From contig JAGGXR010000162.1 in the NCBI GenBank assembly GCA_021162935.1, positions 21,159 through 85,158 on the forward strand: a DNA stretch of 64,000 bases. Direction: 5' to 3'. Numbering within the stretch: the stretch's first letter is position 1; each line of letters begins with the position of its first letter. The stretch comes from Deltaproteobacteria bacterium. Lineage in GTDB: Bacteria > Myxococcota_A > Polyangia > HGW-17 > SLPX01. Below, one piece after another: positions 6,521-24,090 of this stretch. The notes under the pieces are model-generated. The model was not told the DNA's origin and made no database searches. It saw only the letters and a list, made by a program, of their open reading frames with translations. Both the position numbers and the translations under genes were made by a program.

Positions 6521-7909
6521 TCACCCCGACGACGATCGTTTGAGTTTGAGACGAAAGGTGGACCGATGCATGCCCAACAAACGAGCGGCCTTGCTCTGAT
6601 TGCCTCCTGTTGCGGCCAACGCGTCGTCGAGCATCTTTCGTTCGATGGCTTGTAGATCGGAAACCGTCAGGACCGAGTCTGGACTTCCATAGGTTCTGAC
6701 GTCCTCATGTGCAGCGGGAGGACGGTTTTGCGCGTCCGCCGCCTGGAATCGCCCAACACCGGCTCCAGGCAACAACCCGGAAACCACGTCTCGCCAACCC
6801 AAGACACCCGCCCTTCGGACGACGCTGCGGAGTTCGCGGACGTTTCCAGGCCATAAATAGGCCATCAAAGCCTCCATCATTTCCGAATCGGGCTGTCGAG
6901 GCGCCTTCGCCCGAACCATCTTCCTGATAAAATGCTCAATCAACATTCCAATGTCCCCCCCGCGATCCCGCAACGGAGGCAGAGACACGGTCGCTTCCGC
7001 CAACCTGAAATAGAGATCGCGCCGAAACCGACCCACTTCCACCATCTCGTCCAGACGACGGTGGGTGGCGCAAACCACCCGGACATCCACGGCCCGCCAC
7101 GACTTGCCGCCGAGGCGTCGCACCCTGCCGCCATCGAGCACCCGAAGCAATGCCGGCTGCTGCTCAAGGGGCAATTCTCCAATCTCGTCCAGGAACAGCG
7201 TGCCCTGATCCGCCATCTCGAAGAGGCCCGGCTTGGGTCGATCCGCCCCGGTGAAGGCGCCCCGCTCAGAACCGAACAACTCGGACTCGAGCAGTTCAGG
7301 GGGCAACGCACCGCAGTTGACCGGAACAAACGGCCCCTGTGCGCAATTCCCCTCGCGATGCAGCGCCTCCGCCACCAACTCCTTACCAGTCCCGCTCTCT
7401 CCCGTCACCAGGACGGCCAGATCCGTAGCGGCCAACTTCCGCACCACGGCAAACAGACCAAGCATCACCGGATCGCCGCTGACCATCGAGCCACAAACCT
7501 GACGTCCGCCCTGCGGGGTAATCTTCCCACGATCGGACAGGGTCAAGGTGGCATTGCCGAGCCCAAGCGAATCACCGGCCCGCACCTGTCCACTCATCAC
7601 ACGAACCCCGTTGAGGTACGTCCCGTTCTTGCTCCCCTCGTCCGCCACCCACCAGACACCGTTGATCCGCTCCATCCGGCAATGGTGGCGGGATACGGTC
7701 GGAAACGCCAACCGAAGATCGCATGAGATATCCGAGCCGATCAGGACTCGTTCTCTGTGAAGCGTCACCGGACGATCGCGACCCGGGACATGGATATACC
7801 GAGGCGACTTGGACTGGTTCTCCATGGGCATGGACCGAGTTCCCCCAATTCCTTGCTTGTCATGAGATTCGACGGGCGCTCCAAGCATACGAGACATGGC
7901 AACCTCCAC
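6521..7909 (-). CDS. FHA-domain sigma-54-dependent transcriptional activator (FHA + AAA+ sigma54-interaction + Fis-type HTH)
   Basis: N-terminal FHA ([14 protein letters not shown]...SRHHCRM...SKNGTYLNG). Central sigma-54 AAA+ domain ([27 protein letters not shown]). C-terminal HTH ([20 protein letters not shown]). Confidence 0.85.
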
Positions 7910-8240
7910 AGAAGCATTCGATGCGACAACTGGTTGTCGAACAACGAACGAAAATGTTGCGTGCCCCGACGTGGATCCGACGGATTCCGCTGGCGTCTAT
8001 CCTTAAAGGGCGAAAAAATCATGGGGCCCATTGCCTCACCACCTCAATTGCTTCAACCCAGGCCACCTGGTTCTTCATTCATCCTTGTCGTCGCCCCTGC
8101 GTCTCGACCGCCTCACCATGACCCCCTCCCTTATGAATCAAAGCCAGAATTCCGCAGTAATGGTTGACCCCAAAGACCTTCCTCTGGTATGTATGACAAT
8201 CATTTTCTAAGCGAAATTCGAAAGGAAAGCCAAAATCGCC

Positions 8241-21681: not shown

Positions 21682-21687
21682 CACCCC

Positions 21688-24090
21688 ATGCACGACTTCC
21701 TGACCGGTATCCTCCATCTCCGATTCACCCCTTGGTCCCTGCCGCACCTGGGCATGCTCATGCTCATGGTCGCGTTGCTCGTCAACACGAAGCGCCGGAT
21801 GCCCAACACCCCCCTGGTCCGATCCTATCGACTGATGGTGGGAGCCGCTCTCATCTGGACCCTCCTCGAAGGCATCCAGATATCGACCATATCTCCTGAA
21901 GCACAGTCTTTCTGGATGCGTCTCCAAGCGATCGGTTTTGCTGCCACCGGCCCTCTCTGGCTCGTGTTCACGACACGCCTGTCAGGGGGCAATTTGACGA
22001 AGAGTCGGGCAATCAGGTTCGTCCTGTGGCTCGTATATCTGGCCAGCCTGGCCATCGTGTGGACGAACCCCATCCACCACCAATTCGCCGGCAAGCACCC
22101 CAGCTCCCTCGGTGGCGGTCTGTTTTGGGCCCTGGTCACCACGCAACTCGGTTTGGTGGCCATTGGATATGCATCCATCATCGGATCCTTCCTCAAACAC
22201 GAATCCATGAGGAACACCCACGACCCACTCATCCTCCTCCTTGCCGCTGTCCCTCCCGCTGGATACATCCTCCTCGTTCCCAGTGGCTTACTCCCCACAT
22301 CACTGACCGGCCCGGTCACGGCCGCCTATGCAGCCATCTTGTATCTCGTCCTCAGGGGGCACCAACCATCACTCAAAGCACCTCTCAGTCTCCCGGTCCT
22401 CCTCAACACCATCGATGCTCTGTTGGCCGCCACCACCGTGGACGGGACCATCGTCGAAATCAATGACAAGGTGGACGACATCTTCAACGGACGGCTGGTT
22501 CCCAACGGCCGACCAAGGACCATCGCCGAACTCTTGACCCACATGGAACCTGCTACGCCGCCACCCGAATGGAGCACGCTGCAGCACCTTGACACGAAGC
22601 GCAGCCGGAAGCCCGTCCGGTTTTCTTGTCCATTGGGTGGCCCAGAAGGGCTATGGGCATCCATCGCCCTCCATCCTCTTCACCTGGGACGCCAGCTCTA
22701 CGGGTATCTCCTGCACATCCAGGACATCACCCAGGTCGCCACCATGGCTCAGGACCTCCAGCAACGGGACCAGGAATTGCGCCAGGCCCACCAGGAACTC
22801 GAACGGGCACACAGGAAGCTCGCCGCACGTGCAGAGGACCTGGAACGGGCAGTGGCGGCCAAGGCCGCCGCGCTGGAAGAACAGCACCAGCAACTGCTCC
22901 ATGCACAAAAAATGGAGAGCCTGGGCGCCTTGGCCGGTGGTATCGCGCATGACTTCAACAACGTCCTGTTCAGCCTGATCGGCTATGCCGACCTCATCCT
23001 CGAAGACCCACAGAACCCCGACGAGGTGGGATACTGCGCTGCAAAGATCAAGGCAAGCTCCCAGCGTGCAGCCGAACTGACCCGCAAACTCCTTGGGTTC
23101 GCCCGACGAGACAAGCCGCACCTGCAGGCCATGGACCTGTCCAGCCTGATTCGAGACGTGGTCGACCTCCTGCGCCGAACCGTCGAACCAAGAATCCAGT
23201 TTCGATACTCGATCGAGTCCTCTCAATCTCGAATCATGGGCGACCCGCAACAGATCCACCAGGTCCTGATGAACCTGTGCCTGAACGCAGCCGAAGCCAT
23301 TTCAGGCGCAGGACAAGTGACCGTATCCACAGAGGGACCGGTCGTGGGTGCAGACCTCCAATCCGGTCAATCGGGTATCGCTCAGGCCACCTGGTATCTG
23401 TTGCTCACGGTTACCGATACCGGCTGTGGAATGTCTGAAGAAACCGTCGCTCACGTCTTCGAGCCATTCTTCACCACCAAGAGCCGTGGCAAAGGAACAG
23501 GCCTGGGGCTCTCCCTCGTCTATGGCATCGTCAAAGAGCACGGAGGCTTCATAGACGTGACATCCACCCCGGGCAAGGGAAGTCGATTTCGAATCTATCT
23601 CCCCATCAAGCCTGGAGCCAGCCATGACGACGGACCGCAAGTCGACAAGCCAAGCACAGAGCGCGGATCACGACGAAAACGACCCGCCTTCAAGACGTTC
23701 GATCACCTGTCCCTGGAGCAACCCCGAGTCGGCATCCTGGTCATCGACGACAACCCGGACGTCTTGGCCCTGACAAAACGGTACTTCGCCGAACCCATCT
23801 TCGAGGTGACCACCGCCCAAAATGCCGCTGAAGGACAGGCTATTCTTGCCGACTCGAAACAGCACTTGGACGTGGTTCTGCTGGATCTCATCCTACCCGA
23901 CGGCGACCCGATCGATATTTTCACGCAGATCAAAGCCATCAAGCCAGGCATCCCAATCGTGATCATGAGTGGATACCACGATGACGACCGACTGAGCGAA
24001 CTGATGGTGATCGGCGCCGCCAAGTTTCTCAAAAAACCATTCAGCCGCAAGGACCTCCGCGCCACGGTGCGCCACATCCTCGAGGAGTGA
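21688..24090 (+). CDS. Hybrid sensor histidine kinase (7TM-type N-terminal sensor, HisKA, HATPase_c, C-terminal receiver)
   Basis: About 7 N-terminal TM helices and a coiled coil. HisKA H-box (IAHDFNNVLFSLIGYADL). HATPase (GTGLGLSLVYGIV). Receiver (ILVIDDNPDV...VVLLDLILPDGD...K). Starts 7 nt after the kinase stop. Confidence 0.8.
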   Translation: MHDFLTGILHLRFTPWSLPHLGMLMLMVALLVNTKRRMPNTPLVRSYRLMVGAALIWTLLEGIQISTISPEAQSFWMRLQAIGFAATGPLWLVFTTRLSGGNLTKSRAIRFVLWLVYLASLAIVWTNPIHHQFAGKHPSSLGGGLFWALVTTQLGLVAIGYASIIGSFLKHESMRNTHDPLILLLAAVPPAGYILLVPSGLLPTSLTGPVTAAYAAILYLVLRGHQPSLKAPLSLPVLLNTIDALLAATTVDGTIVEINDKVDDIFNGRLVPNGRPRTIAELLTHMEPATPPPEWSTLQHLDTKRSRKPVRFSCPLGGPEGLWASIALHPLHLGRQLYGYLLHIQDITQVATMAQDLQQRDQELRQAHQELERAHRKLAARAEDLERAVAAKAAALEEQHQQLLHAQKMESLGALAGGIAHDFNNVLFSLIGYADLILEDPQNPDEVGYCAAKIKASSQRAAELTRKLLGFARRDKPHLQAMDLSSLIRDVVDLLRRTVEPRIQFRYSIESSQSRIMGDPQQIHQVLMNLCLNAAEAISGAGQVTVSTEGPVVGADLQSGQSGIAQATWYLLLTVTDTGCGMSEETVAHVFEPFFTTKSRGKGTGLGLSLVYGIVKEHGGFIDVTSTPGKGSRFRIYLPIKPGASHDDGPQVDKPSTERGSRRKRPAFKTFDHLSLEQPRVGILVIDDNPDVLALTKRYFAEPIFEVTTAQNAAEGQAILADSKQHLDVVLLDLILPDGDPIDIFTQIKAIKPGIPIVIMSGYHDDDRLSELMVIGAAKFLKKPFSRKDLRATVRHILEE

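Follow-up and report, generated by a model that had tools for sequence, protein, structure and literature searches.

A Kil-like secretin-ATPase-scaffold core within a conserved Ser/Thr kinase, phosphatase and FHA-adaptor neighbourhood in an uncultured deltaproteobacterium

Introduction

Does a Tad-like envelope machine whose genes lie among Ser/Thr kinase, phosphatase and FHA genes belong to the Kil type that kills bacterial prey on contact, and is it linked to those signalling genes by more than chance? The question is raised by a 64,000-nt stretch of contig JAGGXR010000162.1 (henceforth the window, whose coordinates are used throughout), which comes from a metagenome-assembled genome (MAG) of an uncultured Myxococcota lineage recorded as 'Deltaproteobacteria bacterium' and encodes a secretin, a motor ATPase and a membrane scaffold protein next to kinases, a PP2C phosphatase and several FHA proteins. 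By sequence, we found this secretin-ATPase-scaffold trio to be homologous to Kil cluster 1 (KilC-KilF-KilD), and its linkage to the kinase, PP2C and FHA-adaptor genes proved to be evolutionarily conserved and not accidental. An earlier note on this DNA, made from the letters, had described a Kil-like core wired to Ser/Thr kinase, PP2C and FHA genes; the linkage does recur in other genomes, though it is not universal. We give a probability of roughly 0.6 to the reading that the window holds a Kil cluster-1 core together with a conserved kinase/PP2C/FHA neighbourhood, forming a phospho-gated killing apparatus of the kind proposed there.

The genes in question (the module, 601-24090) were delimited from a listing of open reading frames (ORFs) and from Pfam scans (hits at E <= 0.01), with the gene calls of six identical metagenome contigs as a check. 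All domains named in the earlier note were recovered in this way (Pfam and metagenome gene calls), and the count of 'five FHA proteins' needed correction: there are four such proteins, which carry five Pfam FHA domains among them. A sixth, degenerate FHA fold lies in the N-terminus of the scaffold (residues 1-96). Two conserved minus-strand genes had gone unmentioned (14127-15575 and 15591-16745), and the conserved unit was found to begin further left, at 601, so that another tail-anchored kinase and a TPR membrane protein of 1431 aa also belong to it. Pfam scans of the large ORFs across the rest of the window revealed no FHA domain outside the module; since the arrangement also recurs in other genomes, it exceeds what would be expected by chance.

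Results

Conservation of the gene neighbourhood

Homologous contigs are coded L007, L008 and so on (L007 and L011 represent one genome, titled 'uncultured Myxococcales'). The order of 13 genes between 601 and 24090 was kept in four distinct MAGs (the window, L007/L011, L008 and L009). It comprises four blocks: the kinase STK0, a TPR protein and an activator; the secretin, ATPase and KilD-type scaffold; a phospholipase C (PLC)-like protein and a lipoprotein; and an adaptor, PP2C, an FGE-domain protein (the optional member), a second kinase and a hybrid histidine kinase. As the variable proteins of the four MAGs are only 43-47% identical (tblastn), these represent well-separated taxa. STK0 is 73% identical in L011 and occupies the same position in L007/L011, L008 and L009; the TPR protein aligns at ~31-33% identity over nearly its full length in L007, L008 and L011, with the same position also in L009; and hybrid kinase orthologues stand at the matching position in L007, L008 and L009. 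A further contig, L015 ('Polyangia bacterium'), keeps the run ATPase, KilD, PLC-like protein, lipoprotein, adaptor, PP2C and Zn-ribbon kinase at 28-54% identity. By their titles, the closest loci come from uncultured Myxococcales, Kofleriaceae, Polyangia and Vulgatibacter, which fall within the known Kil host range (Myxococcales, Bradymonadales and Bdellovibrionales). The features of the module are as follows.

601-2016, plus strand: STK0, Hanks-type Ser/Thr kinase (Pkinase E 2e-39; transmembrane (TM) helix 451-469 of 471 aa)
2114-6409, minus strand: TPR protein of 1431 aa with one TM helix (~651-669); many TPR Pfam families, including PknG_TPR
6521-7897, minus strand: FHA-AAA+(sigma-54 interaction)-HTH_8 enhancer-binding protein, here the activator (Pfam FHA, Sigma54_activat and HTH_8)
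8164-8193, plus strand: candidate sigma-70-like promoter TTGACC-N18-TATGTA, 5' of the secretin operon (consensus match, conserved in four genomes)
8241-9665, plus strand: KilC-type short secretin with signal peptide (T2SS-T3SS_pil_N and Secretin)
9690-11750, plus strand: KilF-type motor ATPase (FHA, linker and T2SSE of the TadA/CpaF kind)
11796-13973, plus strand: KilD-type scaffold, FHA-TM-TPR-like (FHA and profile match to KilD)
14127-15575, minus strand: PLC-like secreted protein of 482 aa (zinc phospholipase C / P1-nuclease fold and C-terminal beta-sandwich)
15591-16745, minus strand: lipoprotein (lipobox; CarboxypepD_reg-like beta-sandwich N-domain, weak PF13620 match)
16911-16940, plus strand: promoter/operator-like elements CTATTATCTTA then TTTGTAAAC, 5' of the signalling operon (invariant in the four-genome alignment)
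17005-18171, plus strand: adaptor with three Zn ribbons and two FHA domains (Pfam DZR/Zn_Ribbon and 2 FHA)
18168-19214, plus strand: PP2C (PPM) Ser/Thr phosphatase (PP2C_2 and PP2C)
19211-20125, plus strand: exported FGE-sulfatase-domain protein (PF03781 E 3e-38)
20128-21681, plus strand: Zn-ribbon Hanks kinase, tail-anchored (Pkinase E 6e-49 and Zn_Ribbon_1; TM helix 494-512 of 517 aa)
21688-24090, plus strand: seven-transmembrane (7TM) hybrid histidine kinase (HisKA_7TM-HisKA-HATPase_c-REC)

The activator gene is divergent from the secretin operon, with the TPR-protein gene downstream of it on the same strand. Because the adaptor, PP2C, FGE, kinase and hybrid kinase genes overlap by 4 bp or lie 2-6 bp apart, they can be regarded as one operon (henceforth the signalling operon).

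To see how steady these associations are, we compared twelve contexts of the PLC-like gene (the window, L007/L011, L008, L009, L012, L015, L091, L092, L093, L094, L095 and a contig of JGI 3300047160), searching for neighbours within 10-kb flanks. Wherever the contig was long enough, the lipoprotein/PLC pair was divergent from a gene for a double-FHA adaptor, which is usually fused to Zn ribbons (these are missing in two contexts) and usually followed by PP2C and then a kinase. The adaptor-PP2C-kinase set recurs in L007-L009, L015, L094 and the JGI contig, while the adaptor operons of L091, L092 and L095 carry an AAT-family gene and that of L095 also an FHA-trypsin gene. Kil genes adjoin the PLC-like gene in 9 of the 12 contexts, in three architectures: that of the window; the series Flp-KilA-KilC-KilF-KilD followed by the pair (L091 and L095); and an FHA-ATPase alone (L093). 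Outside the window's clade none of the contexts showed the activator, the giant TPR protein, STK0 or the hybrid kinase. The steadiest association is thus that of the adaptor with the lipoprotein/PLC pair, and the Kil linkage is frequent, not obligatory.

For comparison with classical Kil cluster 1 we used L010, a 9-Mb Myxococcaceae MAG contig that served as the reference locus in place of M. xanthus DK1622 sequences, together with L016-L019 (Vulgatibacter included), applying the same flanks. The secretin-ATPase core is present in all five loci and KilD is detectable in all except L019. The only kinase found near them is a partial Pkinase match on the opposite strand in L016.

The secretin, motor ATPase and scaffold resemble KilC, KilF and KilD

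Cluster 1 of M. xanthus encodes an FHA protein, the KilA peptidase, the KilC secretin (short and without an N0 domain), the FHA-ATPase KilF and KilD, which has FHA and TPR domains (PMC8460266). The order in L010, i.e., FHA protein (250 aa), Peptidase_A24, secretin (480 aa), FHA-ATPase (611 aa) and a protein with two FHA domains (792 aa), equals the published one (PMC8460266 Supplementary file 1). The window secretin (474 aa) is 35% identical end to end to the L010 secretin, and in Pfam scans it matched solely PF13629 and PF00263, with no STN or Secretin_N (N0) domain at E <= 0.01. The ATPase consists of an FHA domain (23-87), a disordered P/A/R-rich linker of ~160 aa and a T2SSE domain (335-613) whose Walker A and B motifs are intact; relative to the L010 KilF orthologue it is 71% identical in the ATPase domain and 60% in the FHA domain. 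Its best NCBIfam model is the TadA family (326 bits). A search of 5.8 billion proteins returned FHA-CpaF proteins of Myxococcota, including Hyalangium, as the best matches: the best 120 are all ATPases of the same family as the window protein, nearly all with the FHA and T2SSE pair. No second T2SSE ATPase was found among the scanned window ORFs.

The KilD-type protein directly follows the KilF-type ATPase gene, as in Kil cluster 1. It combines the degenerate N-terminal FHA fold, a linker, a canonical FHA domain (168-261), a TM helix (281-299) and a TPR-like alpha-solenoid (319-723). While BLASTP found only weak similarity to the L010 KilD, a profile of the scaffold family (16 sequences, the number of full-length homologues in the word-indexed database) aligned with the KilD proteins of three loci at a probability of 100 (E 4e-76, 663 columns). 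In this alignment the N-terminal beta domain corresponds to the first, canonical FHA domain of classical KilD and has lost its Arg/Ser/Asn residues. The TM helix is shared with the classical KilD proteins; KilD has been called cytoplasmic in its published description. Basic residues lie on both sides of this helix across the KilD family, a pattern compatible with either orientation of the C-terminal domain. We also noticed two invariant cysteines of the family, C457 and C502 (window ~13164 and ~13299), in the helical-repeat region past the TM helix.

Since its core genes are homologous to KilC, KilF and KilD and stand in their order, the view that the locus is Kil-like rather than a standard Tad locus is borne out. 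The FHA saturation and the FHA-CpaF fusion pointed out in the earlier note are present as described, and both have been published as characteristic of Kil (PMC8460266). Among CpaF proteins, the FHA-CpaF layout is known as 'class III' (PMC12019362). FHA domains have been found over-represented in Kil clusters and an upstream phosphorylation cascade resembling that of the Pseudomonas type VI secretion system (T6SS) has been predicted, with no kinase named (PMC8460266). We further observed FHA-CpaF matches over residues ~1-4 to 684 in several of the loci L021-L040 (e.g., L021-L023, L029, L039 and L040), whose taxa are Desulfocapsa, Kiritimatiellia, Verrucomicrobia, Lentisphaeria and Victivallales, with a secretin just 5' in L021. 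Given these near full-length matches, the fusion is not restricted to predatory deltaproteobacteria.

Kinases, phosphatase and competence of the FHA domains

The canonical Arg/Ser/Asn set for phosphothreonine binding was found in only three FHA domains, namely those of the ATPase, the second of the scaffold (FHA2) and the first of the adaptor (FHA1), which retain the elements Gly-Arg, Ser-x-x-His and Asn-Gly. Across the KilD family, FHA2 shows no exception to this set. The second FHA domain of the adaptor is degenerate in the window's clade and canonical in L015 and L091. The disordered linker that joins the adaptor's Zn ribbons to FHA1 is variable save for the motif PTPPAG(L/V)P(K/R)P (residues ~103-112, window 17311-17340), which recurs in 5 of 6 aligned orthologues (not in L091) and could be a phospho-acceptor or docking site. 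The adaptor was also considered as an orthologue of the classical small FHA protein (MXAN_3104-like, L010 7010-7762) and rejected, as the two have just generic single-FHA similarity.

The catalytic motifs of the kinases in the module are intact (VAIK, HRD and DFG in STK0, for which a C-terminal TM helix is predicted), as are the metal-binding motifs DGMGG, DSR and DN of PP2C, whose gene overlaps that of the adaptor by 4 bp and whose score against the Stp1/IreP family is 225 bits (cutoff 230). Both STK0 and the Zn-ribbon kinase end 2-5 residues past their sole TM helix and have no periplasmic domain, and the tail anchor of the latter is conserved in L007-L009 and L094. Being tail-anchored, with a topology that is kept in the orthologues, both kinases are predicted to be unable to sense the periplasm themselves. 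A Q/P-rich repeat linker separates the Zn ribbon from the kinase domain of the Zn-ribbon kinase; it is encoded by a tandem repeat (45 bp x 2.1 with a nested 15-bp repeat, ~20511-20621, giving QPQPLAQPQQAQPSV), through which the linker may vary in length. The FGE protein, the least conserved member of the module, has a hydrophobic N-terminus, and its L007 orthologue carries a lipoprotein signal peptide (lipobox).

The lipoprotein and the PLC-like protein

The 482-aa PLC-like protein has a Sec signal peptide, an all-alpha domain of the PLC/P1 fold and an alpha-toxin-like two-domain layout, while Pfam (E <= 0.01; Zn_dep_PLPC and S1-P1_nuclease included), NCBIfam and PDB-sequence profiles gave no match. 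As regards the nine ligands of the trinuclear zinc site, its residues H28, H116, H215, D219, H225 and E248 align to H14, H69, H118, D122, H128 and E146 of 1ah7 in a weak alignment (hhalign E 0.0015, probability 17%), and lie partly in the motifs HFLDP, H215-x3-D219-x3-P-x-H225 and YE248RF; the equivalent of D55 was not clearly placed, and the mature N-terminal residue is Tyr, Phe or Trp. Within the family, H215 is kept in 15 of 27 members and H225 in 17 of 27. The family comprises 320 representative clusters at E <= 1e-30 (full HMM search), and its named members come from Myxococcales and Nannocystaceae MAGs. The lipoprotein gene always lies just upstream of the PLC-like gene, with lipobox homologues paired in L007-L009 and L091-L094. 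For the role of cargo or toxin, the PLC-like protein is our first candidate; it might instead sense lipids or the state of the envelope, perhaps anchored by the lipoprotein.

Activator and promoters

The activator has a sigma-54 interaction domain (PF00158 E 9e-64) with a GAFTGA loop and an HTH_8 domain (E 1e-14). In the four-genome alignment of the spacer between activator and secretin, a conserved TTGACC-N17/18-TAnnnT element with an A-rich spacer looks, from its consensus match, like a sigma-70-like promoter candidate. The spacer between lipoprotein and adaptor contains the invariant blocks CTATTATCTTA and TTTGTAAAC, which overlap a sigma-70-like match (16892-16920); the TTTGTAAAC block could be an operator. 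A second sigma-54 activator, of the REC type, was seen at 57200-62585 beside two histidine kinases, one of them PDZ-containing. Regulators of the sigma-54 kind being common in this genome, less can be concluded from finding one beside Kil genes.

Machine parts sought in the window

Searches for the remaining parts of the machine covered the 64-kb window, which lies within a 220-kb contig of this MAG. Pfam scans of window ORFs gave no match to T2SSF, CpaB/SAF or a ParA-like TadZ. No Flp pilin was found in the window, either by a motif scan (G/xxxxEY and a hydrophobic stretch) or by tblastn with queries from L091, L095 and L010. For KilA, there was no Peptidase_A24 in scanned window ORFs and tblastn with three proteins gave no credible window match (best E 0.005, within a gene that has nothing to do with KilA). 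In L091 and L095, by contrast, an Flp prepilin (GQG|MTEYIIIVALIAI...; 20115-20381 and 18150-18434, respectively, both on the minus strand) and KilA are encoded beside KilC-F-D. Nothing in the window is similar to the L010 cluster-1 neighbours (456, 711 and 906 aa). A small gene between activator and secretin, called with 57 aa in L007, was discarded, as the window has no conserved ORF or Flp-like sequence there. In Myxococcus the genes for the platform (KilG/KilH), the CpaB-like KilB, the pilin and the minor pilins are in a distant second kil cluster (PMC8460266). By analogy with these split clusters, the pilins, platform and prepilin peptidase are presumably encoded elsewhere in this genome.

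Other genes of the window

Right after the hybrid kinase gene lies a gene for an SLT-domain lytic transglycosylase with DUF4124 (24562-25233, minus strand), which is not there in L007 or L009; lytic transglycosylases often accompany envelope-spanning machines. The adjacent 25356-29771 (minus strand) encodes in a row a Cys-rich lipoprotein (508 aa, no family), a FecR-PEGA-TPR membrane protein and an extended ECF-type sigma factor, and looks like a separate cell-surface signalling unit. Further along (34232-38897, plus strand) are a LolA-like protein, two MacB_PCD/FtsX permeases and an ABC ATPase; these belong to the TagS/TagT protein classes and probably form a Lol-type lipoprotein sorter.

Discussion

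Proposed mechanism and alternative explanations

From the domains encoded, the Kil machine may be gated by phosphorylation in the following way. The exported FGE protein and the lipoprotein and/or the 7TM kinase would detect a perturbation of the envelope caused by contact with prey, and the kinases at the cytoplasmic face of the inner membrane would be activated indirectly. These would phosphorylate threonines on themselves or on components of the machine, and the FHA domains of KilF, KilD (FHA2) and the adaptor (FHA1) would dock on the resulting phosphothreonine sites. Such docking would recruit the motor to the scaffold and thereby lead to local pilus assembly, with PP2C resetting the system. 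This succession of kinase, FHA docking and PP2C reset follows, by analogy, the logic of the T6SS threonine phosphorylation pathway. That a cascade of this kind triggers Kil pili at prey contact, with the PLC-like protein acting as effector or lipid sensor, is a tentative proposal: we consider it possible and would not bet on it.

Several observations weigh against a phospho-gated Kil apparatus. Phosphorylation, docking of FHA domains on phosphothreonine, and killing are steps that we infer from sequence. Of a Kil machine, the 64-kb window holds the core genes: Pfam scans of the large ORFs, the Flp-motif scan and tblastn revealed no TadB/C-type platform, CpaB, Flp pilin or prepilin peptidase in it. 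The PLC-like gene and the signalling operon are absent from the 10-kb flanks of the classical loci L010 and L016-L019; conversely, no Kil gene was found within 10 kb in 3 of the 12 PLC-like contexts (L092, L094 and the JGI 3300047160 contig), and the Kil-linked L091 and L095 have neither PP2C nor kinase beside the adaptor, for which reason the kinase may act on behalf of the PLC-like pair and not of the pilus motor. In L008 and L015 nothing matched the FGE gene. As to the PLC-like protein, Gly stands at the position equivalent to H142 of PLC, and ~40% of family members have one or two predicted zinc-binding His replaced; some members may thus be non-catalytic.

The earlier note had suggested that the FHA domain of the activator could make transcription phospho-dependent as well. 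In 4 of 4 orthologues this domain has Gly-Ser for Gly-Arg, so that the canonical phosphate-binding Arg is lost. We scanned the module and three orthologous loci for the sigma-54 consensus GG-N10-GC (-24/-12), accepting sites that matched 8 or more of its 11 positions. The spacers of the module yielded no such promoter; between the genes of the orthologous loci a single site turned up, an unconserved palindrome in L008 that matches 8/11. With the conserved promoters looking sigma-70-like, we consider the transcriptional arm of the proposal weak and, as the spacers in question hold no conserved -24/-12 site, abandoned the view that the operons next to the FHA activator are driven by it. It probably acts elsewhere; a pilin/platform cluster as its target would be a guess.

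The main rival to phospho-gating of the Kil machine is that two separate systems are neighbours here: the unit of kinase, PP2C, adaptor, FGE protein and 7TM kinase would control the lipoprotein/PLC pair alone, in its production, export or activity (e.g., in membrane-lipid remodelling or as a secreted lytic enzyme), would merely lie beside Kil through a shared lifestyle, and other kinases would feed KilF and KilD. The adaptor does face the lipoprotein/PLC pair in every context read, including the three where Kil genes are missing within 10 kb; the classical Kil loci lack a PLC-like gene and, bar the partial Pkinase in L016, a kinase of the module type; and the PLC-like family, with its 320 representatives, is much larger than the Kil-adjacent set. 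Against this, adjacency to Kil in 9 of 12 contexts and in three arrangements is hard to obtain without selection, and in L093 the PLC-like gene abuts an FHA-ATPase alone. Moreover, Myxococcota have many FHA-less secreted enzymes that come without such kinase units. On balance, we hold the two-system explanation to be rather unlikely, and worth serious attention.

An exporter similar to a type II secretion system (T2SS) seems to us distinctly improbable. Under it, the secretin, ATPase and scaffold, with a pseudopilus encoded elsewhere, would push the folded PLC-like enzyme across the outer membrane, and phosphorylation would time its release. The Sec signal peptide, the alpha-toxin-like layout and the position of the PLC-like gene beside the secretin-ATPase-KilD operon in 9 of 12 contexts are what one would expect of such a substrate, and delivery of Kil effectors 'similar to a T2SS' has been suggested by the authors of the Kil work themselves; however, the same study found that Myxococcus polymerises a KilP pilus where it touches its prey (PMC12075869). 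Here the PLC-like protein is a putative substrate, and the substituted zinc ligands in its family argue against a purely enzymatic cargo. There remains the plainest explanation, a fragment of an ordinary Tad/Flp adhesion pilus in a genome so rich in kinases and FHA proteins that the neighbourhood means nothing. Myxococcota genomes are indeed rich in Ser/Thr kinases and FHA proteins. The FHA-CpaF fusion also occurs in Kiritimatiellia, Lentisphaeria and Desulfocapsa loci and is a recognised CpaF class (PMC12019362). This explanation is already disfavoured, and we give it hardly any weight: four genomes share the order of 13 genes although their variable proteins are only 43-47% identical, the core is specifically like KilC, KilF and KilD, and no FHA domain occurs in the scanned ORFs elsewhere in the window.

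What the locus adds

To our knowledge, Kil is the only Tad-like pilus that kills bacteria on contact. Its effectors were described as unidentified in 2025 (PMC12075869), the spatial determinants of its assembly were called 'unknown' in a preprint of July 2026, and in the literature searched neither Kil nor any Tad pilus was linked to a kinase or phosphatase. The Kil machine itself, its richness in FHA domains and the FHA-CpaF fusion are already known; what is new is the conserved synteny, and the operon of kinase, phosphatase and adaptor, the FHA-type activator and the PLC-fold partner set this locus apart from known Kil loci. By guilt by association, it supplies candidates for the Kil trigger (two kinases, PP2C, the adaptor, the FGE protein and the 7TM hybrid kinase) and for what Kil delivers (the PLC/alpha-toxin-fold protein with its lipoprotein partner). 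If the proposed cascade is true, the locus would thereby point, with candidates for each, to what triggers Tad-mediated bacterial killing and to its toxin. Orthologues of these candidates can be searched for in Myxococcus or Bradymonas, which makes the hypothesis testable. More broadly, a weapon built on a type IV filament may have acquired, independently, the threonine-phosphorylation logic known from the T6SS.

Comparison with known systems

The window shares with Kil cluster 1 (M. xanthus MXAN_3102-3108: KilA, KilC, KilF, KilD) the order of secretin, FHA-ATPase and FHA/TPR scaffold, and the two are alike in having a short secretin without N0, a single ATPase with an N-terminal FHA domain, a richness in FHA domains and no platform or pilin genes in the cluster. 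Unlike Kil cluster 1, the window lacks KilA and the upstream small FHA protein, in place of which there is the divergent FHA-sigma-54 activator, and its first KilD FHA domain lacks the phosphothreonine-binding residues. It adds two tail-anchored kinases, PP2C, the adaptor, the FGE protein, the 7TM hybrid kinase and the lipoprotein/PLC pair, none of which is in the published kil clusters. With canonical Tad/Flp loci (Caulobacter cpa and Aggregatibacter tad) it has in common a CpaC/RcpA-type secretin (PF13629 and PF00263) and a TadA/CpaF-type ATPase, whose layout of FHA domain, intrinsically disordered region and ATPase is that of class III CpaF (PMC12019362). Unlike these loci, it has only the secretin and ATPase and no contiguous flp-cpaA-cpaB-cpaE-tadB-tadC, and its ATPase is nearer to KilF (71%) than to the other recovered CpaF proteins (45-63%).

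Two further comparisons concern single proteins. The PLC-like protein resembles zinc PLC/alpha-toxin (1ah7, B. cereus PC-PLC; 1olp, Clostridium; 8cqm, Listeria PlcB) and S1/P1 nucleases and has an insertion of ~100 residues; unlike in zinc PLC, the H142 equivalent is missing and two His ligands vary across the family. The NCBIfam model of GltG (FHA-TM-TPR) covers the FHA domain, TM helix and TPR start of the KilD-like protein (E 4e-14), and an assignment as a Glt orthologue was rejected at 52 bits against the GltG cutoff of 650. As in GltJ, which contains a Zn ribbon, the window pairs Zn-ribbon and FHA modules with bitopic or tail-anchored membrane proteins. The Zn ribbons may play a part in binding small GTPases.

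The parallel with the T6SS threonine phosphorylation pathway (P. aeruginosa H1-T6SS, TagQRST-PpkA-Fha1-PppA), which the earlier note had also drawn, holds at the level of composition, where the likeness is one of domain class only: both have a Hanks kinase, a PP2C phosphatase and an FHA adaptor encoded together, and the exported FGE-class protein and the lipoprotein of the window may correspond by class to TagR and to the outer-membrane lipoprotein TagQ. As for the FGE-class protein, TagR is listed as COG1262 (PMC13584744). A search of the literature for TagR together with 'formylglycine' returned no paper, the COG1262 label being all that was found. COG1262 is the FGE/SUMF1 family. Unlike PpkA, the window kinases have no periplasmic sensor domain, and unlike the T6SS pathway, the conserved module has no TagST-type ABC pair; the LolA/MacB-FtsX/ABC genes at 34-39 kb were considered as TagST analogues and rejected, as they are not conserved beside the module in L007-L009. 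No scanned window ORF matched a family of the Tss core genes. Both the T6SS pathway and the module adjoin an envelope-spanning weapon, of which the T6SS assembles on contact and the window machine is known from its genes. The latter is a Tad-like pilus and not a T6SS, with FHA domains also built into its motor and scaffold.

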